From positions 5,550-69,549 of the forward strand of contig JBBQLB010000012.1 in NCBI GenBank assembly GCA_038327465.1: a stretch of 64,000 nt of DNA. The letters are read 5' to 3'. Shown here in pieces: positions 4,893 through 56,493 of the stretch (position 1 is its first letter; each line of letters opens with the position of its first letter). Position numbers and translations under genes: made by a program. This DNA is from Sphingomonadales bacterium (GTDB lineage: Bacteria; Pseudomonadota; Alphaproteobacteria; Sphingomonadales; Sphingomonadaceae). The notes beneath the pieces were generated by a model. It had not been told where the DNA came from and made no database searches. It saw only the letters and a list, made by a program, of their open reading frames with translations.

Positions 4893-7250
4893 TTACGCAG
4901 CCGCGCGGTCGCCCCAGTTGCGGTGGGCGAGGGTGCGCGCTTCGGCAACGGGCAACGGGCGGCCGAAATAATAGCCCTGCACTTTGGTACAGCCGAGATC
5001 CTGCACCATGCGGTGTTCGTCCTCGGTCTCGACCCCTTCGGCGGTGGTCGCCATGCCGAGGCTCTGCGCCAGCGCGACGACCGCGCGGATGATCGCGATC
5101 GCCTCGGGCACCTTTTTCGAGGCGCCGATGACGAAGCTGCGGTCGATCTTGATCGTCGAGAATTTGGTGCGGCTGAGATAGCCGAGCGAGGAATAGCCCG
5201 TACCGAAATCGTCGAGGCTGAGGCGGACGCCGAGCCCGAGGATACGCTCCAGCACCTTCACCGCGCCGGTGTCGTCGCGCATGAACACGCTTTCGGTGAC
5301 TTCGAGCTCGAGCCGACTGGCGGGCAGACCGCTATTGGCCAGCGCCGAGGCGACGATCGCGACGAAGCCGGGATTGTGCAATTGTTCGGGCGAAACGTTG
5401 ACCGCGACGCGCGTTTGGCCGGGCCAGGTCGCGGCCTCGGCACAGGCCGAGCGCAGCACCCATTCGCCGATCGGCGCGATCAGCCGCGCATCCTCGGCGA
5501 GCGGGATGAATTTTGCGGGCGAGATCGAGCCAAGCTCGGGATGCGTCCAGCGCACCAGCGCTTCGAACCCTTTCAGGCGTCCGGTGCCGGCATCGACCAC
5601 GGGCTGATAATGCACGTCGAGCTCGTCATTGCTGAGCGCCTTGCGCAGCGCCTGTTCGAGCACGCGGCGTTCCTCGGCCGCGACGTGCAATTGCGGTTCG
5701 TAGCAATGGTACATGCCGCCGCTCTGATCCTTCGAGCGATAGAGCGCGAGGTCGGCCGACCGGATCAGCATCTCGGCGGTCGCGCCATCGCGCGGGCCGA
5801 ACGCGACGCCGACACTCGCGCCGGTGTAGAGCGTGTGCTGATCGAGGTCATAGGGTTTGGCGAGCGTATCGACGATCGTCTGCGCGAGCCGCTCGACGCG
5901 CGCGCTGTCGCTCGCATCGCGCACGACCACCGCGAATTCGTCACCGCCCAAACGCCCGATCAGCTCATTCTCGGTCATCAGCGCGGCGAGCCGTTCGGAG
6001 ACGCGGCCAAGCAGCCGATCGCCGATCGGATGGCCGAGCGAATCATTGACCGCCTTGAAGCGATCGAGATCGATCATCATGAAGGCGCAGCGGCTGTTCC
6101 ATTTGGTCGCATCGGCCATCGCGCGCGCCAGCGTTTCGTTGATGTGCAGCCGGTTGGGCAGGCCGGTCAGCGTATCGAAGCGCGCCATCCGGTTGATCTT
6201 GTCGGCCGATGCGCGTTGCTCGGTCACATCCGATCCGACCCCGCGAAAGCCGATAAATGCGCCGCGCTCGTCGACCCGCGGGTTCGCCGCGATTTCGAAC
6301 CAGCGCTCGGTCTCGTCGATCCGCACCGGCAGCAGCACGTCGCGAAACGCCACACGCCCCTTCAGATGCTCGCCCAGCGTGCGCAGGCCCGCCGCGAAAT
6401 TCCCGGCTTCCCACGTCGGCCCGGCGAGCACTTCGAGCAGCGACTTGCCATTGATGCTGACGGGATCAAGCCCGACCGAATGCGCGAAACGCGGCGAGGC
6501 GCGCACCACGCGGCGCGCGGCATCGGTTTCCCACAGCCAATCGGCACTATGATCCTGCGCCTCGCGCAGTAGCAAGCTGACGGTCTCGTCGCGTTCGGCC
6601 AGCGCGATTTCGCCCGCGCGGATCACAACGAGCGCGCGCGCGCGGGTAAAGCAGCCGATCATCAGCAGGGACGTAAACAGCAGCACCGCCGCACTCAACA
6701 CCGGCCCGCCGACGAAGAACAGCATCGTCGCGATCGCCGCGCCGAGAATCCCGAGGAAACTGAGCGTCGCCAGCGGCAGCGCCGCCATCGCGACGGCCGA
6801 TGCGGTCATCAACACCGACAGCACGATCCACAGCCCGAGCGCGGTATTGGTATCGGCGGTAACGCCAAAGGCGAGCGGCGGCACCGACCAGATCGCCGCG
6901 AGCGCGATCCCCTCCAGCACCGTATCGCGCACATCGCCCAAGGACGCGCTGCTCGCGGCGCGGTGGCGCGCGGCGAGGCGACGGAAGGTAATCGTCAGCG
7001 CAACCGCCGCGACGACCGCACCCCAGCTCGCCATCATCCACAGCGGCGCGGCACGTTCGAGAATCAGCGTAACCAGCGCCGCCGCGACGACATTGGCCGC
7101 GAGCAGGAACACAGCAAGCTGGCTCCCGGCATGCAATTGCGCCGCGCGGATCGGCGCCCAATCGGTCGTATCCGCCGGATCGTACAGCCCGAGCAAAGCC
7201 CTGGTGTCGATCCGCGGCATGGCGAATTGGGAGGTCGGTTCGGTGCTCAC
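4893..7250 (-). CDS. Membrane-bound PAS-GGDEF-EAL diguanylate cyclase/phosphodiesterase
   Basis: Multiple N-terminal TM helices, PAS-like region (WLWETD), intact GGDEF, EAL and DDFGTGYSS motifs. Confidence 0.93.
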   Translation of the reverse strand: MSTEPTSQFAMPRIDTRALLGLYDPADTTDWAPIRAAQLHAGSQLAVFLLAANVVAAALVTLILERAAPLWMMASWGAVVAAVALTITFRRLAARHRAASSASLGDVRDTVLEGIALAAIWSVPPLAFGVTADTNTALGLWIVLSVLMTASAVAMAALPLATLSFLGILGAAIATMLFFVGGPVLSAAVLLFTSLLMIGCFTRARALVVIRAGEIALAERDETVSLLLREAQDHSADWLWETDAARRVVRASPRFAHSVGLDPVSINGKSLLEVLAGPTWEAGNFAAGLRTLGEHLKGRVAFRDVLLPVRIDETERWFEIAANPRVDERGAFIGFRGVGSDVTEQRASADKINRMARFDTLTGLPNRLHINETLARAMADATKWNSRCAFMMIDLDRFKAVNDSLGHPIGDRLLGRVSERLAALMTENELIGRLGGDEFAVVVRDASDSARVERLAQTIVDTLAKPYDLDQHTLYTGASVGVAFGPRDGATAEMLIRSADLALYRSKDQSGGMYHCYEPQLHVAAEERRVLEQALRKALSNDELDVHYQPVVDAGTGRLKGFEALVRWTHPELGSISPAKFIPLAEDARLIAPIGEWVLRSACAEAATWPGQTRVAVNVSPEQLHNPGFVAIVASALANSGLPASRLELEVTESVFMRDDTGAVKVLERILGLGVRLSLDDFGTGYSSLGYLSRTKFSTIKIDRSFVIGASKKVPEAIAIIRAVVALAQSLGMATTAEGVETEDEHRMVQDLGCTKVQGYYFGRPLPVAEARTLAHRNWGDRAAA

Positions 7251-12978: not shown

Positions 12979-13020
12979 TCGCGGTTGAAGGCGGCACGGC
13001 ACCGCGCTAAGCGCTGTGGC

Positions 13021-13428
13021 ATGGGCATCAACCTCAATCCTTTCACCTGGTGGAATGGCGCGACCATTGGCACGGCGTTCGGCCTGCGCGGAATGGCGCA
13101 GGTCGGCGAAGACGCGCTTGGCAACGTCTATTATCAGGGCGGACGCGACACGGCGGGCAATCCGCGCCGCTGGGTGATCTATAACGGGCCCAACGATTCG
13201 AGCCGGGTCGCGCCCGAATGGTTCAGCTGGCTGCACCATCAGGTCGATGACGTGCCCGAACGCGCGTTGCCTGCGGCGCGCGCCTGGCAATTGCCGGCCG
13301 AGCCCAATCTGACGGGTACGGTCGCCGCCTATCGCCCGAGTGGTGCGCTCGAAAAGGGTGGCGTTCGCGCCGCTGCAACGGGCGATTACGAAGCATGGGT
13401 TCCGCCCCACGGACAGCCCGAGGCGTGA
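13021..13428 (+). CDS. NADH:ubiquinone oxidoreductase subunit NDUFA12-like protein
   Basis: VGED.LGN.YY, RRWVIY, SRVAPEWFSWLHH, NLTGT, DYEAW.P. Confidence 0.9.
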   Translation: MGINLNPFTWWNGATIGTAFGLRGMAQVGEDALGNVYYQGGRDTAGNPRRWVIYNGPNDSSRVAPEWFSWLHHQVDDVPERALPAARAWQLPAEPNLTGTVAAYRPSGALEKGGVRAAATGDYEAWVPPHGQPEA

Positions 13429-18653: not shown

Positions 18654-18774
18654 GCTAAACGACGTGTTAACCCTGCTTTCAACAGGGCAGACTCATCTCG
18701 CCTGCGCGACAGTGCGCTGAGCATCGCAACGGACGCGATTCTCGGGAGGGGAGAGGCTTGCCTGCCAGTGCGGG

Positions 18775-19281
18775 GTGGGCGTGGACGAGCGCAGCGAATA
18801 TCAGGGGGACGGTCTTGGCCTTGTCGATGACAAGGGCCGGGTCGCGATTCCTGCCTCGCTGCGACAGGCGCTCGCCACGAACTCGCCGCGCCCCGATGGC
18901 AAGGATGGCGGCACGATCATCGTCGGTGTCCATCCCAAGCAGACCTGCCTGCGCGCGTACGATCCCGCGTTCGTCAAAATCCTGAAGGCCAGGGTCGAAG
19001 CGCGCGAGACGCAGCATACCGGCGAGGATGGCGAGCCCAATTACAATTTCAAACGGCGCGGCGCGAGCGGCGAGGCGGCTCCGTTCGACGGATCGGGGCG
19101 CTTCATCATGCCGCCCTTTCCGCGCGATTATGCCGGGATCGGCGAGCATGCCTTTTTCTGGGGCACGTTCGACTGGATCGAAATCTGGGACCCGGCGACG
19201 CTGATCGCGGCGACCGATGTCGATCCGGTGATGCAGGCGGCATGCCGCTTCCATTGCAAGCAGAAGGGGATCGCGCTGTGA
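18775..19281 (+). CDS. mraZ: Division/cell wall cluster transcriptional repressor MraZ
   Basis: [11 protein letters not shown] and [10 protein letters not shown] AbrB-like repeats; first gene of the dcw cluster; GTG start 18775 or 18781. Confidence 0.9.
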
Positions 19282-51375: not shown

Positions 51376-51765
51376 ATGTTCGACGTCGCATCCTCCGAGG
51401 TGATCCTGCTCGGGGTCGTGGCCTTGCTCGTGATCCCGCCCAAGGATTTGCCCAAGGCGATGCGCGTCGCCGGGCATTGGATCGGCAAGGTGCGCGGCGT
51501 CGCCAATCAGTTCCGGTCGGGCTTCGACACGATGCTGCGCGAATCCGAGCTGCAGGAAATGGAAAAGAAATGGGCGGCGGAAAACGCGCGGATCATGCGC
51601 GAGCATCCGCCCGAGCCCGTCCAGATGCTGCCGATGGCAGGCCCGCCTGCGGAAGCGCACGGGGCAGAGGATGCTCCGCCGGTGCTGGTCGAGCAGCCCG
51701 TGATCGCCGCCCCCGAAGTGGTCGACGCCGAACCGCCTAAATCCGCCACCGGTACGCACCCGTGA
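51376..51765 (+). CDS. tatB: Twin-arginine translocase subunit TatB
   Basis: MFDV.SSE…ALLVI.PKDLP; lies between tatA and tatC. Confidence 0.93.
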   Translation: MFDVASSEVILLGVVALLVIPPKDLPKAMRVAGHWIGKVRGVANQFRSGFDTMLRESELQEMEKKWAAENARIMREHPPEPVQMLPMAGPPAEAHGAEDAPPVLVEQPVIAAPEVVDAEPPKSATGTHP

Positions 51766-52541
51766 ACGCACCCGTCGATGACCTCGAGGCAAGCCGTGCG
51801 CCGCTGCTCGATCATTTGATCGAGCTACGCAAACGCCTGTTTTTCTGCATCGTATCGGTGTTCGTCACGCTGATCGGTACGTATTTCTATTCGCGCGAGA
51901 TTTTTACGGTGCTGGTCCATCCGCTGCTCGAGGCGGGGCAGAAGCGGATCGTGACGATCGGCGTGTTCGACGGGTTCTTCGTGCAATTGAAGGTCGCCTT
52001 GTTCGCTGCGTTGATGATTTCGTTCCCGGTCATCGCGAACCAGCTCTGGGGTTTCGTATCGCCCGGCCTGTACCGCAAGGAAAAGCGCGCTTTGCTGCCG
52101 TTTTTGTTCGCGACGCCGGTGCTATTCACCGTCGGCGCGCTGATGGCCTATTTCATCGCGATCCCCTCGGCGCTCAGGTTTTTCCTGAGCTTTCAGGGCA
52201 GCCTCGGCGGGGTCGAGCAGGAAGCGCTTACGTCGGTCGCGAGCTATCTCGATTTCGTGATGCAATTCCTGTTCGCATTCGGCATCGCCTTTCTGTTGCC
52301 GATTTTGCTGATGCTGGTCGAGCGCGCCGGGCTGGTGTCGCGCAAGCAGCTTGTCGCGGGACGGCGCTATGCGATCGTCGGGTGCTTTGCGGTTGCGCTC
52401 GTGCTGGCGCCGCCCGATGCGGGGTCGATGATCATCCTCGCGATCCCGCTGGTCGGGCTCTACGAGCTCGCGCTGATCGCGATCTGGTTCACCGAGCGTA
52501 AGCGGGTGAAGGACGAAGCGACCGATCTGGTCGAAAGCTAA
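51762..52541 (+). CDS. tatC: Twin-arginine translocase subunit TatC
   Basis: LLDHLIELRKRL, FVSPGLY..E, PPD..SM…PL..LYE. Confidence 0.96.
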   Translation: MNAPVDDLEASRAPLLDHLIELRKRLFFCIVSVFVTLIGTYFYSREIFTVLVHPLLEAGQKRIVTIGVFDGFFVQLKVALFAALMISFPVIANQLWGFVSPGLYRKEKRALLPFLFATPVLFTVGALMAYFIAIPSALRFFLSFQGSLGGVEQEALTSVASYLDFVMQFLFAFGIAFLLPILLMLVERAGLVSRKQLVAGRRYAIVGCFAVALVLAPPDAGSMIILAIPLVGLYELALIAIWFTERKRVKDEATDLVES

Positions 52542-52554
52542 CCTTCGCCCTGAT

Positions 52555-52653
52555 AAAAATTTGGACCCGGACGCGCCACCGGGGGGAGGGGTGGCGCGAC
52601 CGGGTCCATGTCTTGGATAGCGAGAGCGGGGGGGCATAAATTCGCTATCCGAA
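52555..52653 (-). ncRNA. Candidate sigma-EcfG-dependent small RNA with two C-rich loops (GsrN-like architecture)
   Basis: Promoter GGAAC-N16-CGTT at 52684-52660; hairpin 1 (9-bp stem, C7 loop); hairpin 2 (9+8-bp stem, CCCUCCCCCC loop) followed by AAUUUUU; no ORF. Confidence 0.65.
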
Positions 52654-52659
52654 GAGTAA

Positions 52660-52684
52660 AACGGTCTTTGTGATATCGGGTTCC
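52660..52684 (-). promoter_or_regulatory. Sigma-EcfG promoter (GGAAC-N16-CGTT)
   Basis: Minus strand reads GGAAC ccgatatcacaaagac CGTT, an exact consensus match. Confidence 0.8.
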
Positions 52685-52728
52685 AAAAAAAATGCGCGTT
52701 CGCACGATTTTTTTTAAAGCGTTTTAAA

Positions 52729-54315
52729 TCAATCGCGTCCGGTCACCGCGACGGAGATTTCGTAAGCGCCGATCAGCGGATCATAGTGTAGCTTCGAGCG
52801 GAGCTGACGCGACAGACCTTCGATCACGCGGCCATAACGTTCGGCCACAAGCGTGCGCATCCGGTCGTCGCCGATCAGCGTCAGCGACGTGACGCGCAGC
52901 ACCGCGCGCGCATCGCTCTCGTCCGGACCGACCGAAATGCGGATATTAGCGGTCGGGCTGACGGTCATCGCCAATTCGACGATTTCGGTGAGGAGAAAGG
53001 CGATGGCAATCGCGACGTCCTGATTGACCAGATATGGCTGGACGTCGAGCGCGATGCTGATCGGTGCATCATCGGCTGCGGTCGCGCGGAGATTCGAGGC
53101 GAGTTCGCCCAGCACCGAGCGCAGCGAGAGCCCGCGATGTTCCTCGAGTTCGGCAAAATGATTGCGATGCACCACTGCGAGCGCATCGACGCGTCGCTGG
53201 ATCGACGCATAAGCGTGGGTCGCCTCGACGCTGCGCGCGGCGCGCGCATGGAAATTGATCAGGCTGGAGATGACCTGAAGGTTGTTCTTCACGCGGTGAT
53301 GGACTTCGCGGGTCAATTTGGTCTGGCGTACCAGCCCTGCGGCCAACCCCGCCTCATGCGCGGCGACGGTACGGCTGATCGCGCGGAAGGTCTCGCCGAG
53401 ATCGCGGATTTCCATCGCGGGGAGCGAACGCATCGCGCCGGGATCGACCTCCTCACCCGGCACGAAATGCGCGACGCTGGTGCGCAATTCCCGCAGCGGG
53501 CGGATCAACAGGCGATCGACGACGAACCAGCCAATCCCGGCAGCGGCGGCCCACATGATGATCGGCAGGATCAGCGCGACCAGCACCGGCGAGGTGATCG
53601 GCACACTGCGCACCCGCGTCATCAATGTGATATCGCCTACGCCAATTGCGGTGCTGAGCGTCGCATGGCGCTCAAGCGGGCCGCTCGCCGGAAGCGCATT
53701 GAGCGACAGAAGGTCGTCGTCGAGCGCGAGCTTTGCCTCATAGGGTTGCGCGTAGGCGTTCGGCGTTGCGGTTGCGGCGAGCATGGCAGCGGGAAAAAAT
53801 GCCGCCGCGCGCGTCCGGCCGGTTGTGCTCGTCGTCGCGAGCGTCAGCCCGCGTCCGGGATACAGGCGCGCCGTGATCGGCCCGTCGGCGGTCGATGTGG
53901 CGGGCCAGGCCTCAACCGGCAACTCTTGCCCGCAGATGATTCTGGCCCGGACATCGGTAATGGAAAAGCGCGTGCCAGCTGCGGCTTGGGGTGCGAAGAC
54001 ACCTTGCGCGCGGGCGCAACTGGGCGCGTCGGCAGGGTCTTGTTCGAGCGCGTCAAGCGCAACGCGGAGCGCCGTCATGTCGCCGCCGAGCTCGATTGCA
54101 AGCTTGCGCGCGCTTTCGGTGGCAGTGACGCGCATCTGCGCGCGCATTGCATCATCCGCCATCGCGACCGTCCGCAATGTCGCGAAAAAGGCGATAATCG
54201 CGAGCGGCAACAGCGCCGCGCTCAGGATCAGAAAGACTTTGGCACCGGTTGGAATGCCGCCGAGCCGGGCGGATAGCCCACGTGCGGCGGGCGCATCGCC
54301 GATCATCTCGGCCAT
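52729..54315 (-). CDS. phyP: GSR-locus membrane HisKA_2-type protein with degenerate ATPase domain (PhyP-like phosphatase)
   Basis: Two TM helices, periplasmic domain, HAMP-like linker, H-box EVHHRVKNNLQ; N-box Asn and DxGxG absent; directly downstream of nepR. Confidence 0.75.
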   Translation of the reverse strand: MAEMIGDAPAARGLSARLGGIPTGAKVFLILSAALLPLAIIAFFATLRTVAMADDAMRAQMRVTATESARKLAIELGGDMTALRVALDALEQDPADAPSCARAQGVFAPQAAAGTRFSITDVRARIICGQELPVEAWPATSTADGPITARLYPGRGLTLATTSTTGRTRAAAFFPAAMLAATATPNAYAQPYEAKLALDDDLLSLNALPASGPLERHATLSTAIGVGDITLMTRVRSVPITSPVLVALILPIIMWAAAAGIGWFVVDRLLIRPLRELRTSVAHFVPGEEVDPGAMRSLPAMEIRDLGETFRAISRTVAAHEAGLAAGLVRQTKLTREVHHRVKNNLQVISSLINFHARAARSVEATHAYASIQRRVDALAVVHRNHFAELEEHRGLSLRSVLGELASNLRATAADDAPISIALDVQPYLVNQDVAIAIAFLLTEIVELAMTVSPTANIRISVGPDESDARAVLRVTSLTLIGDDRMRTLVAERYGRVIEGLSRQLRSKLHYDPLIGAYEISVAVTGRD

Positions 54316-54322
54316 CCGAGGA

Positions 54323-54499
54323 TTATTCGAGCTTGCCAAGAAGATCCAGCATTTCTGGCGGAATCGCTTCTTCGACGGTGCGTTGGTACACCGTGCGCAA
54401 CGCGGCGCCCATGTCGCGGTCCTTACCTTGAACCTTCGCGCCGGTGCCCTTGGTATTTGCCGTGCCTGGCTTTTTCGAAGAATCGTCGCCCGAACGCAA
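54323..54499 (-). CDS. nepR: Anti-sigma factor NepR
   Basis: MGAALRTVYQRTVEEAIPPEMLDLLGKL; probable TTG start at 54499 with AGGGGG SD (ORF is open to 54556). Confidence 0.9.
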   Translation of the reverse strand: MRSGDDSSKKPGTANTKGTGAKVQGKDRDMGAALRTVYQRTVEEAIPPEMLDLLGKLE

Positions 54500-54610
54500 T
54501 GCCGTCCCCCTGGATATCCGGTCATGCCGGATAGAGTTAATGTGCGACCGTAACAACCGTCATATCGGCAGCGATGCGCAGCGATTGCATCGGTCGCGAT
54601 TGGAGGATGA

Positions 54611-54749: not shown

Positions 54750-55556
54750 ATGTCGCTAGGACAGCAGCTTGCCCCCCATCTTCCCTTCCTCCGTCGCTAT
54801 GGCCGCGCCTTGACGGGCAGCCAAACGCATGGCGATCGCTATGTGCGCGCCACATTGGAAGCAATCGTCGCGGCACCGGACGAATTCCCCCGCGACGTCG
54901 ATCCGCGCCTGGGTCTGTACCGTACGTTTCATGCGATCTGGAGCTCGACCAACTATGACGAGACGCCCGAGAATATGAGCGTTGGTGAAGGCGATGGGCA
55001 GGAAGCAATTGCCCGCGCCCGGCTTGCGCGGATGACTCCGCTGTCGCGTCAGGCCTTGTTGCTCACCGCGATGGAAGGCTTCACACCTGAGGATGCCGGC
55101 TATCTGATCGATGTCGATGTCGCCGACGTCGAAGCGCTCGTCGCCGAGGCTTTGGCCGAAATCGAACAGCAGACGCGGGCGCGCGTGTTGATCATCGAGG
55201 ACGAGCCGATCATCGCGATGGACATCGAAACGATCGTCCGTGACCTCGGCCATGAAGTGACAGGCGTTGCCGTGACACGCGACGAAGCGGTCGCGCTGGC
55301 GATGGAGGATCGTCCAGGCTTGGTGCTCGCCGATATTCAGCTTGCCGATGACAGTTCGGGGATCGATGCGGTCAAGGATATCCTTGCCGAATTTGAAGTG
55401 CCCGTGATCTTCATCACCGCTTTCCCCGAGCGTCTGCTGACGGGCGAGCGGCCCGAGCCGACCTTCCTGATCACCAAGCCGTTCCAGCGTTCCACGGTTA
55501 AGGCCGCGATCGCGCAGGCTTTGTTCTTCGACCAGGCGACCGTTCCCGCCGCCTGA
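54750..55556 (+). CDS. phyR: Anti-anti-sigma response regulator PhyR
   Basis: N-terminal sigma-like domain (LPFLRRYGRALTGS), C-terminal receiver (IIEDE, LADIQL, FITA, TKPF). Confidence 0.97.
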   Translation: MSLGQQLAPHLPFLRRYGRALTGSQTHGDRYVRATLEAIVAAPDEFPRDVDPRLGLYRTFHAIWSSTNYDETPENMSVGEGDGQEAIARARLARMTPLSRQALLLTAMEGFTPEDAGYLIDVDVADVEALVAEALAEIEQQTRARVLIIEDEPIIAMDIETIVRDLGHEVTGVAVTRDEAVALAMEDRPGLVLADIQLADDSSGIDAVKDILAEFEVPVIFITAFPERLLTGERPEPTFLITKPFQRSTVKAAIAQALFFDQATVPAA

Positions 55557-55557
55557 G

Positions 55558-55582
55558 GGAACCCATTCGCGCCTCCGGGGTT
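55558..55582 (+). promoter_or_regulatory. EcfG-type promoter (GGAAC-N16-GGTT)
   Basis: GGAAC ccattcgcgcctccgg GGTT, 44 nt before the ATG of the 47-aa ORF. Confidence 0.6.
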
Positions 55583-55625: not shown

Positions 55626-55769
55626 ATGGCCGACGAAGAGCGAATCGAAGTCACTGCCGAAGAAGCGCGCGGTGGCGAAACGCCGCATGTGACGCGCTAT
55701 GTTCTCGGCATTTCGCTGGCGCTGGTCGTGGTGATCTTCGCCGCCTTGCTGATATTTTTCCAACGCTGA
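55626..55769 (+). CDS. 47-aa single-pass membrane small protein (not in ORF track)
   Basis: MADEERIEVTAEEARGGETPHVTRYVLGISLALVVVIFAALLIFFQR; GGGGG SD; C-terminal TM helix. Confidence 0.75.
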   Translation: MADEERIEVTAEEARGGETPHVTRYVLGISLALVVVIFAALLIFFQR

Positions 55770-55848: not shown

Positions 55849-56493
55849 ATGAGCGACGCAATCGATCACGATGAAGACGATGTTGCGCCCGAGGTCGTCG
55901 AGCATGTTTCGCTCTCCGACCCCGAGTTCAAAACGCAATTGGCGCAGGTGATTCCGCATCTCCGCGCGTTCGGTCGGTCGCTCTCGGGCAATCGTGATCT
56001 GGCCGACGATCTCGTGCAGGAAACGCTGATGAAGGCGTGGGCTGCGCGGCTGCGGTTTCAGGCTGGCACCAACATGCGCGCCTGGACCTTCATCATTCTG
56101 CGCAATCTGTATCTCAGCCAGATGCGCCGCGCGCGCTTCAAGGGTGAGTGGGACGATCTGGTCGCCGACCGGATCCTCGCCGCGCCAGCCAGTCAGGACA
56201 AGCATGTCGAATTGGGCGACATGCAGCGCGCGCTGCTGCATTTGCCGCAGCCGCAGCGCGAGGCGCTGATTCTGGTCGGCGCCGGTGGCTTTGCGTATGA
56301 AGAGGCAGCGGAAATCTGCGGCGTCGCGGTCGGCACGATCAAGAGCCGTGTGGCGCGCGGCAGAGTCGCGCTGGAAGCGGTGATGAGCGACAATACGCTC
56401 GCCTCGCGCCGGACGCACAGCAATGCGCCGGGAATGTCTGCGCTCGATACGATCATGGGCGAAGTCGACGAGCTGAGCCGCAATCGCGGGTGA
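55849..56493 (+). CDS. ecfG: General stress response ECF sigma factor EcfG
   Basis: PHLRAFGRSLSG..D.ADDLVQETL.KAW, GTNM.AW.F.ILRN, GT.KSRV.R; adjacent to phyR/nepR. Confidence 0.95.
   Translation: MSDAIDHDEDDVAPEVVEHVSLSDPEFKTQLAQVIPHLRAFGRSLSGNRDLADDLVQETLMKAWAARLRFQAGTNMRAWTFIILRNLYLSQMRRARFKGEWDDLVADRILAAPASQDKHVELGDMQRALLHLPQPQREALILVGAGGFAYEEAAEICGVAVGTIKSRVARGRVALEAVMSDNTLASRRTHSNAPGMSALDTIMGEVDELSRNRG

Follow-up and report, generated by a model that had tools for sequence, protein, structure and literature searches.

A 64-kb window of genomic DNA from a Sphingomonadales bacterium (contig JBBQLB010000012.1; the 64,000-nucleotide stretch analyzed here, hereafter the window) carries, on the minus strand at the edge of its general stress response (GSR) locus, a compact intergenic element in which an exact EcfG-type promoter motif is followed by two hairpins with C-rich loops and a U-tract. 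We consider it likely that this element is a genuine, stand-alone, EcfG-dependent small RNA (sRNA) gene of ∼95 nt belonging to the alphaproteobacterial GSR, and it looks like a sphingomonad counterpart of Caulobacter GsrN. Within the literature searched, it represents an undescribed family, of a kind that had been predicted earlier, namely EcfG-driven sRNAs with C-rich loops linked to GSR loci. The protein level of the GSR is well mapped (PhyR-NepR-EcfG, PhyT, and the Paks), and experimental knowledge of the post-transcriptional layer comes from Caulobacter GsrN alone. The main sphingomonad GSR models are Sphingomonas melonis Fr1 and Sphingopyxis granuli TFA, and the RNA, if transcribed, would fill the post-transcriptional gap in this group and could be tested in existing wild-type and ecfG-mutant strains, possibly with RNA-seq data already deposited.

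In the mechanism proposed here, phosphorylated PhyR would free sigma-EcfG from NepR, and EcfG-RNA polymerase would start ∼9 nt downstream of the -10 element, placing the predicted 5′ end at the base of hairpin 1, with transcription expected to stop at hairpin 2 and its U-tract. The RNA would then present an invariant C7 tract in the large open loop of hairpin 1 and a second tract, CCUCC(C)n, in the terminator hairpin. The RNA would act in trans. Both loops are likely seeds for G-rich stretches of mRNAs, such as Shine-Dalgarno (SD) regions or 5′ leaders, and the outcome could be repression or, following the example of GsrN and katG, an increase in translation or stability, constituting a post-transcriptional arm of the EcfG regulon. 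Given that the element is an sRNA, action through seed pairing is moderately probable.

Promoter and predicted RNA

The first-pass annotation of the window had reported an exact GGAAC-N16-CGTT motif, two hairpins with C-rich loops, and a U5 run, together forming a unit with no open reading frame (ORF), and the motif, hairpins, and U5 run were all found on the minus strand where it had placed them (Table 1). The promoter string by itself is not significant at window scale, with one exact match vs 0.76 expected by chance (64 kb, both strands), and the case for a promoter therefore rests on position and conservation. The motif lies within an intergenic gap of 188 nt, ∼9 nt ahead of hairpin 1, with UUACUCUUC directly after CGTT and before the two hairpins, and it agrees with the EcfG motif of S. 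melonis, GGAAC-N17-20-GTT (PMC6599016). A search allowing spacers of 15-18 nt gave a second string in the window (N18; 13403-13377, minus strand), which is most likely a chance match because it lies antisense within a coding region, that of an NDUFA12-like protein (12985-13428, plus strand). Transcription of the RNA would begin at C52651 or G52650, at the base of hairpin 1, a placement based on a distance of 8-9 nt to the -10 element that is the same as in Caulobacter gsrN; the gsrN start itself (8 nt after CGTT, the first base of the 5′ stem) was placed from supplementary probe coordinates (antisense to GsrN 18-36).

Folding of the 116-nt stretch with ViennaRNA returned exactly hairpins 1 and 2, with a minimum free energy of -57 kcal/mol vs -32.5 ± 3.2 kcal/mol for dinucleotide shuffles (z = -7.8), and none of 200 shuffles was as stable. 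Hairpin 2, written whole as UGGACCCGGUCGCGCCAC/GUGGCGCGUCCGGGUCCA, has a stem of ∼17 bp with one bulge or mismatch position and is probably an intrinsic terminator; its loop includes CCCUCCCCCC and has a C6 run in the window. The last base of the U5 run (52555) is separated by 13 nt from the tatC stop codon; tatC (51762-52541) is convergent. An ORF starting from an ATG/TTG in loop 1 was considered and rejected, as five homologues have lost its start codon, it spans anywhere from 8 to >133 codons, and the loop-2 C-run, which varies in length, breaks its frame. The RNA region thus appears to be non-coding and to lack any conserved ORF, as initially proposed.

Conservation and independence from neighboring genes

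Relatives were collected by a scan anchored on TatC, with each species represented by one genome, which gave 80 loci with TatC identity to the window from 95% down to 56%, drawn from Sphingomonas sensu lato, Stakelama, Allosphingosinicella, Sphingosinithalassobacter, Glacieibacterium, and other Sphingomonadales metagenome-assembled genomes (MAGs). BLASTN with the 190-nt intergenic region found a match in 67 of the 80 loci, and a covariance model built from their alignment (R1) recovered four more (71/80), as well as a locus of S. parapaucimobilis from a plasmid collection, bringing the total to 72 copies, exactly one per locus. Full-length copies score 85-157 bits with R1, and the window copy is among the best (151.5 bits, E = 2.5e-38). 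An R1 search found no second copy in the 64-kb window, and the occurrence of one copy per locus with none elsewhere in the window excludes a repeated or mobile element.

The usual gene order, present in ∼60 loci, is tatC <- ecn <- sRNA <- phyT <- nepR / phyR -> small ORF -> ecfG, where ecn encodes an entericidin-family lipoprotein (Pfam PF08085). The sRNA gene almost always lies directly 3′ of the nepR-phyT operon (in the window, 45 nt past the phyT stop codon), the exceptions being loci L017 and L043, which lack phyT, nepR, phyR, and ecfG and still carry the sRNA and ecn beside tatC. Four other loci (L050, L052, L061, and L073) have ecn beside tatC and no sRNA. The S. parapaucimobilis locus (L081; NZ_CP155750.1, 140209-150325), the single match in the plasmid collection, has the same synteny. 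It resides on an 853-kb replicon deposited as a plasmid that bears tatABC, scpAB, and nagZ as well as the complete GSR locus and the sRNA, and because of this gene content the replicon is regarded as either a chromid or part of the chromosome that was misassigned. The sRNA region of this locus has no annotation, and the PLSDB tables, which omit RNA genes, are uninformative on annotation. Two MAGs labeled 'Bordetella parapertussis' (L008) and 'Janthinobacterium lividum' (L018) carry typical Sphingomonas tatC-sRNA-GSR loci, with TatC 87% and 69% identical to that of the window, respectively, and these bins are probably mislabeled or contaminated.

Among the 67 BLAST-detected homologues, 65 have GGAAC-N16-(C/G)GTT in register, in the same alignment columns. 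Pairwise identity across the 67-sequence MAFFT alignment (A1) is 100% in the -35 element, 37% in the spacer, 96% in the -10 element, and 52% in the discriminator, then 91-96% in the arms of hairpin 1, 88% in loop 1, 72-75% in the arms of hairpin 2, 75% in loop 2, 54% in the 3′ tail, and 27% in the downstream flank, a profile that reads as a working promoter with a functional RNA behind it. Within loop 1, the six C columns and the 3′ G of GCCCCCCCG are invariant, the flanking G and C show conservation of 90% or higher, and the C-run measures 7 nt in 59 of the 67 sequences. Loop 2 contains CCUCC in 60 of 67 homologues, and its C-run is always present, ranging from 5 to 14 nt between species (A1 columns 107-126; window 52580-52592). 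The variable run in loop 2 and the nearly fixed run in loop 1 suggest that loop 2 is slippage-prone and length-tolerant and that loop 1 is length-constrained. The promoter and C-rich loops described from the window alone are therefore conserved in relatives, the opposite of what the first-pass annotation had named as evidence against an sRNA.

The paired structure is maintained along with the sequence. RNAalifold applied to A1 recovers both hairpins, with compensatory changes in 14 of 24 predicted pairs. When the structure is specified, 95% of alignment cells are paired vs 30-49% with slid partners, and two-sided (compensatory) changes occur in 16-17 of the 24 pairs in A1 and in a model-fitted alignment of 72 sequences. 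In A1, 16 pairs changed on both sides vs 7.2 ± 1.4 in shuffles; none of 500 shuffles matched the observed value of any covariation measure, and the model-fitted alignment agrees. Most of this signal comes from hairpin 2 (compensatory changes in 13 of 15 pairs; 92% of cells paired vs 30-49% slid). Hairpin 1 is nearly invariant, with 98.8-99.7% of cells paired and compensatory changes in 3-4 of 9 pairs in distant homologues. Both arms of the inverted repeat GGATAGCGA-N18-TCGCTATCC are nearly invariant and lie right at the predicted transcription start, properties that would also suit a site acting as DNA, such as an operator for a dimeric regulator. Against this, the arm changes found in distant members (L018, L019, L023, L024, L076, and L079) preserve pairing and include G-U intermediates, with one pair polymorphic between CG and UG (42:29), and the most conserved part of the element is the asymmetric loop rather than the arms. 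Such changes appear to be an RNA-type signature, and a DNA site is accordingly a highly improbable explanation.

The two remaining explanations that do without an independent sRNA invoke the neighboring genes. According to the first, which the first-pass annotation had itself raised, the hairpins are mere terminators or 3′-untranslated structure for the convergent nepR-phyT and tatC transcripts, and GGAAC-N16-CGTT is fortuitous. The window offers some grounds for this reading, as hairpin 2 lies close to the tatC stop codon, tatC has no other terminator there, and the chance expectation for the motif is close to one. Comparison with relatives contradicts it. In 57 of 66 aligned relatives ecn stands between the sRNA and tatC, and in locus L001 a separate hairpin and T-run follow between ecn and tatC, so the RNA hairpins are not needed for tatC termination in that locus. 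In L017 (locus 5750-7210), the upstream gene is a divergent panB-like gene, and the RNA could therefore come only from its own promoter; promoter and RNA are intact in this locus (141 bits). On the other side, the kinase gene has a small hairpin of its own, GUGCG-AACG-CGCAU followed by T8, between its stop codon (52731-52729) and the -35 element, which probably serves the nepR-phyT operon as a weak terminator and/or acts as an A/T-rich upstream promoter element; the T-run before the -35 element occurs in closer relatives only. Terminators also have no need for invariant loops or for conserved -35 and -10 elements separated by a free spacer. A terminator-only role is thus extremely unlikely. 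In the window, where both ecn and the hairpin of the L001 type are absent, tatC transcripts would run antisense into the sRNA gene.

According to the second, the RNA is a cis-acting 5′ leader or attenuator co-transcribed with ecn, and the window holds a relic left after deletion of ecn. The closest relatives (TatC 93-95% identical) do carry ecn and the window does not (52541-52562 vs L001 5780-6100). In nearly all ecn-bearing loci the gene lies on the same strand 93-174 nt after the RNA (31 nt in L023), the RNA-ecn pair is kept even where it is separated from the GSR genes (L017 and L043) or from tatC (Allosphingosinicella loci), and the U-tract behind hairpin 2 is weak in many species. Nevertheless, in 54 of 57 loci ecn has a promoter motif of its own, GGAAC-N16/17-CATT, which lies 31-70 nt ahead of the ecn start codon (e.g., L001 6040-6070, L063 6010-6040, and L081 5165-5195), with a -10 of CATT and not CGTT, and the RNA is therefore not needed as a leader. 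In S. melonis, the 'predicted small secreted protein' gene #1442 has such a motif 30 nt from its coding sequence (CDS) and is strongly EcfG-dependent (PMC6599016); this gene would be the ecn orthologue. The region thus appears to consist, in ecn-carrying loci, of two tandem EcfG-type units, the sRNA and ecn. Furthermore, ecn is absent from the window and nine other loci that keep the sRNA, so that at least ten lineages without ecn retain the RNA at full covariance model score, and U-tract strength is alike with and without ecn (4.4 vs 4.3 T in 10 nt). We regard the leader explanation as very unlikely, and as judged from sequence comparison the element would be neither a mere terminator of tatC or the kinase gene nor a leader, in agreement with the initial proposal of an independent non-coding unit driven by an EcfG-type promoter at the edge of the GSR locus.

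Locus context, candidate targets, and points of doubt

Pfam searches confirm the GSR neighborhood recognized in the first-pass annotation (Table 1). The gene it had called phyP closes the nepR-phyT operon, immediately preceding the sRNA, and corresponds to the locus-encoded PhyP of S. melonis; the identification of the gene holds, but the name has since been superseded by PhyT (PMC5898713). As nepR lies only 7 nt upstream of the kinase gene, the two are taken to form one operon. The SD and TTG start of nepR are conserved in 38 of 53 relatives, and a small conserved inverted repeat (aTCCGG-N-CCGGAt) occurs just upstream of this SD (window 54497-54540, minus strand). Between phyR and ecfG lies a 47-aa ORF with a GGGGG SD. 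S. parapaucimobilis has a similar small 'hypothetical protein' annotated (45 aa).

Table 1. Features of the sRNA element, its neighbors, and the proposed pairing sites in the window. Duplex energies are given as loop 1 / loop 2.
Feature	Position	Strand	Description
-35 element	52684-52680	minus	GGAAC; exact EcfG-type match
Spacer	between GGAAC and CGTT	minus	16 nt
-10 element	52663-52660	minus	CGTT; exact match, 16 nt 3′ of -35
Predicted sRNA	52555-52651	minus	∼95-97 nt; predicted start C52651/G52650; predicted 3′ end in U5 run
Hairpin 1	52650-52615	minus	9-bp stem, GGAUAGCGA (52650-52642) / UCGCUAUCC (52623-52615); 18-nt loop
Loop 1	52641-52624	minus	candidate seed AUUUAUGCCCCCCCGCUC; C7 run at 52634-52628
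Linker between hairpins		minus	6 nt
Hairpin 2	52608-52562	minus	UGGACCCGG-U-CGCGCCAC (52608-52591) / GUGGCGCG-U-CCGGGUCCA (52579-52562)
Loop 2	52590-52580	minus	second candidate seed CCCUCCCCCCG; anti-Shine-Dalgarno-like
Tail	52561-52553	minus	AAUUUUUAU (AA-UUUUU-AU); U-tract after hairpin 2; U5 run 52559-52555
Small hairpin upstream of -35	52685-52705	minus	GUGCG-AACG-CGCAU then T8, preceded by A8 run; 5-bp stem; terminator-like match
PhyT (formerly PhyP)-type kinase gene	52729-54315	minus	Pfam HisKA_2 9.7e-17, HWE_HK 7.2e-07
nepR	54323-54499	minus	58 codons, TTG start; Pfam NepR 1.3e-05, 25.2 bits (just under 25.7-bit gathering cut-off)
nepR SD	54511-54505	minus	AGGGGGA; 5 nt before TTG start; -17.6 / -17.8 kcal/mol
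nepR promoter	54635-54611	minus	GGAAC-N16-GGTT
phyR	54750-55556	plus	Pfam PhyR_sigma2, PhyR_sigma-like, Response_reg
Motif upstream of 47-aa ORF	55558-55582	plus	GGAAC-N16-GGTT
47-aa ORF SD	∼55616		-17.4 / -19.2 kcal/mol
47-aa ORF	55626-55769	plus	MADEERIEV...LLIFFQR; no Pfam match; predicted membrane peptide
ecfG	55849-56493	plus	Pfam Sigma70_r2, r4_2
GGGAGGGG upstream of mraZ	18744-18751		-17.8 / -19.9 kcal/mol

Candidate targets of the two loops were compared by scoring RNAduplex energies against every 40-nt segment of the 64-kb sequence on both strands. Well ahead of the sites proposed in the first-pass annotation is a loop-1 site at 18766-18786 (plus strand; -28.8 kcal/mol, best 0.1%), which overlaps the probable GTG start of mraZ, lies 20 nt downstream of GGGAGGGG, and is the third-strongest loop-1 site in the window, the sRNA antisense excepted. 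A bolder and rather unlikely extension of the sRNA reading holds that the C-loops pair with the nepR SD (AGGGGGA and TTG), possibly also with the SD of the 47-aa ORF, so that EcfG would reduce production of its own anti-sigma factor and hold the response in the on state, or that pairing of loop 1 with the mraZ start couples stress to cell division; in either case the sRNA family would be lineage-specific and of an origin independent of GsrN, by convergence. If true, nepR feedback or mraZ coupling would represent a circuit motif new to ECF15 systems.

Several observations weigh against an EcfG-driven, seed-pairing sRNA or parts of that reading. The three targets suggested by the first-pass annotation (the nepR SD, the SD of the 47-aa ORF, and GGGAGGGG) fall only within the 2.5-6.7 percentile of windows, which is background level, and it had rightly called them speculative. 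No specific target stands out from the duplex comparison within the 64-kb window, which contains 72 G5 runs, and a conserved G-run in the nepR SD does not by itself show targeting. The U-tract is modest across homologues (a mean of 4.4 T in 10 nt, with a longest run of ∼3.4) and short in many of them, as in AAUUCCCCC, making the efficiency of termination uncertain. Public RNA data, available as assembled contigs only, yielded no transcript boundaries and no discrete transcript. The window sequence itself has matches in sediment and freshwater DNA metagenomes only and in no RNA runs. The RNA variants of L063 and L047 occur in assembled Logan contigs from dozens of RNA-flagged runs of many unrelated organisms; these contigs run through the -35 and -10 elements into ecn or phyT, or are long with flat depth, and one contig from an RNA run adjoins an adapter within hairpin 2. 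These contigs fit contaminating Sphingomonas DNA or read-through as well as they fit an sRNA, and because neither transcript ends nor abundance can be read from assembled contigs, they were counted neither for nor against.

The arms of hairpin 1 are also more conserved in sequence than base pairing alone requires, which belongs to the same list of doubts and could point to a protein partner instead of, or besides, mRNA pairing. In that case an EcfG-driven RNA would mainly bind or titrate a protein, such as Hfq, another RNA chaperone, or a ribosome-associated factor. The near identity of the arms extends across genera in which TatC is only 56-60% identical, and the invariance of loop 1 would fit this function as well. 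Conversely, C-rich single-stranded loops recur in sRNAs that pair with mRNAs, including GsrN (PMC5869019), 6C (PMC6486639), and the cuckoo/CcsR RNAs (PMC4615179), the element has no recognizable protein-binding motif, and many targets acting on one seed can also freeze its sequence. Protein binding as the main function is therefore considered unlikely.

Comparison with known systems

A general precedent for the proposed sRNA is found in MicA, RybB, and MicL of E. coli, which form a post-transcriptional repressing arm for sigma-E, a sigma factor capable only of activation (PMC8103513). The concept is the same, with sRNAs made from strong sigma-dependent promoters; however, sequences and structures are unrelated, the sigma factors belong to ECF02 and ECF15/EcfG, respectively, and the targets are known in E. 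coli.

At gathering thresholds, an Rfam search of the whole window returned only one tRNA. A permissive search gave sub-threshold look-alikes (Scr3202, SR6 antitoxin, ar14, and CcsR1), which are read as shared architecture and not as membership. The actinobacterial type of C-loop RNA is represented by 6C, which pairs with multiple mRNAs through C-rich loops (PMC6486639). Like 6C and Streptomyces Scr3202 (RF02833), the sphingomonad RNA has two GC-rich hairpins with at least six C in each loop (C7 and C6 in the window, up to C14 in relatives), and 52654-52559 is covered by a full-length alignment of the Scr3202 model (positions 1-95). Membership in Scr3202 was rejected at 32.5 bits vs a gathering threshold of 52 bits, with an unrelated phylum and a different sigma factor, and 6C (RF01066) gave no match even at E ≤ 10 in the permissive search. 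All carriers found have Sphingomonadales-type and not actinobacterial loci. Because of the sub-threshold score and the unrelated taxa, the similarity is most readily understood as convergence toward a design of C-rich loops and G-rich targets in high-GC genomes.

Closer in taxonomy are the cuckoo RNAs (alpha-r14, RF02344; CcsR1-4, RF02791; and RSs0680; PMC4615179, PMC8034643), reported from Rhizobiales and Rhodobacterales in a paper that makes no mention of sphingomonads (PMC4615179). These are likewise alphaproteobacterial stress-induced sRNAs with adjacent hairpins and anti-SD-like C-rich loops, CCUCC is present in loop 2 of the sphingomonad RNA, and the Rfam models give weak alignments over both hairpins of the latter. 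Unlike the sphingomonad RNA, cuckoo RNAs require CCUCCUCCC in every loop; loop 1 of the sphingomonad RNA, UGCCCCCCCGCUC, is without CCUCC, and loop 2, CCCUCCCCCC, matches partially. Membership was rejected on scores of 18.6 vs 58.8 bits gathering for ar14 and 14.8 vs 65.3 bits for CcsR1. The CcsR RNAs depend on RpoHI/HII and are processed from a DUF1127 mRNA, whereas the sphingomonad promoter is of the EcfG type and the unit is free-standing.

Accounts of sRNAs in sphingomonads are few. The papers on the GSR regulons of S. melonis and Sphingopyxis granuli do not mention sRNAs, and the S. melonis scan covered only the 500 bp upstream of annotated CDSs (PMC6599016). According to a 2025 preprint, the LysR-regulated SuhB is the only characterized sRNA of strain TFA. 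Full-text literature searches for GsrN together with sphingomonads returned nothing. An alignment and covariance model such as those used here could seed an Rfam family and mend the 'nothing annotated' status of the RNA in hundreds of Sphingomonas genomes.

The closest functional parallel is GsrN of Caulobacter, a sigma-T-dependent sRNA of ∼100 nt that uses a C-rich 5′ loop to act on G-rich sites in mRNAs, including the katG leader (PMC5869019). Hfq-dependent stability and processing into a stable 5′ isoform are further traits of GsrN. Homologues of GsrN are usually found beside the GSR locus, Tien et al. (2018) obtained BLAST matches to gsrN only within Caulobacteraceae, and Erythrobacter litoralis, the one sphingomonad examined, had no apparent gsrN-like gene (PMC5869019). 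In the same work, GsrN-like genes were sought through a near-consensus EcfG site, closeness to the GSR locus, and intergenic transcription (PMC5869019). The sphingomonad element has a near-consensus EcfG promoter, a position at the GSR locus, and a C-rich loop in a 5′ hairpin whose accessibility is predicted.

The resemblance to GsrN (CCNA_R0081) extends to several details. The promoters are near-identical (gsrN, GGAACCAAGGGACGGGGCGGTCGTTTTG), with GGAAC-N16-CGTT followed by TTxxx and a start 8-9 nt downstream, and both RNAs are ∼100 nt long with a 3′ terminator hairpin and a short U-tract. GsrN begins at the base of its 5′ stem and bears an open loop with a C6-C7 tract (ACGCCCCCCGA), and the sphingomonad RNA is predicted to do the same (UGCCCCCCCGC). 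In most carriers, the gene lies beside ecfG, nepR, and phyR. Sequence homology to the body of gsrN was not detected, as an nhmmer profile of 67 sphingomonad sequences aligns to the promoter only (0.1 bits). The architectures also differ. The 5′ domain of GsrN is a long stem enclosing the C-loop and a small inner hairpin, whereas the sphingomonad RNA consists of two simple hairpins, and the terminator loop of GsrN is GGUGA, not C-rich, whereas the sphingomonad RNA has its second C-rich candidate seed in that position. EcfG-driven C-loop sRNAs at the GSR loci of distant orders without detectable homology would imply either very fast divergence, with promoter and seed excepted, or repeated invention of the same regulatory design.

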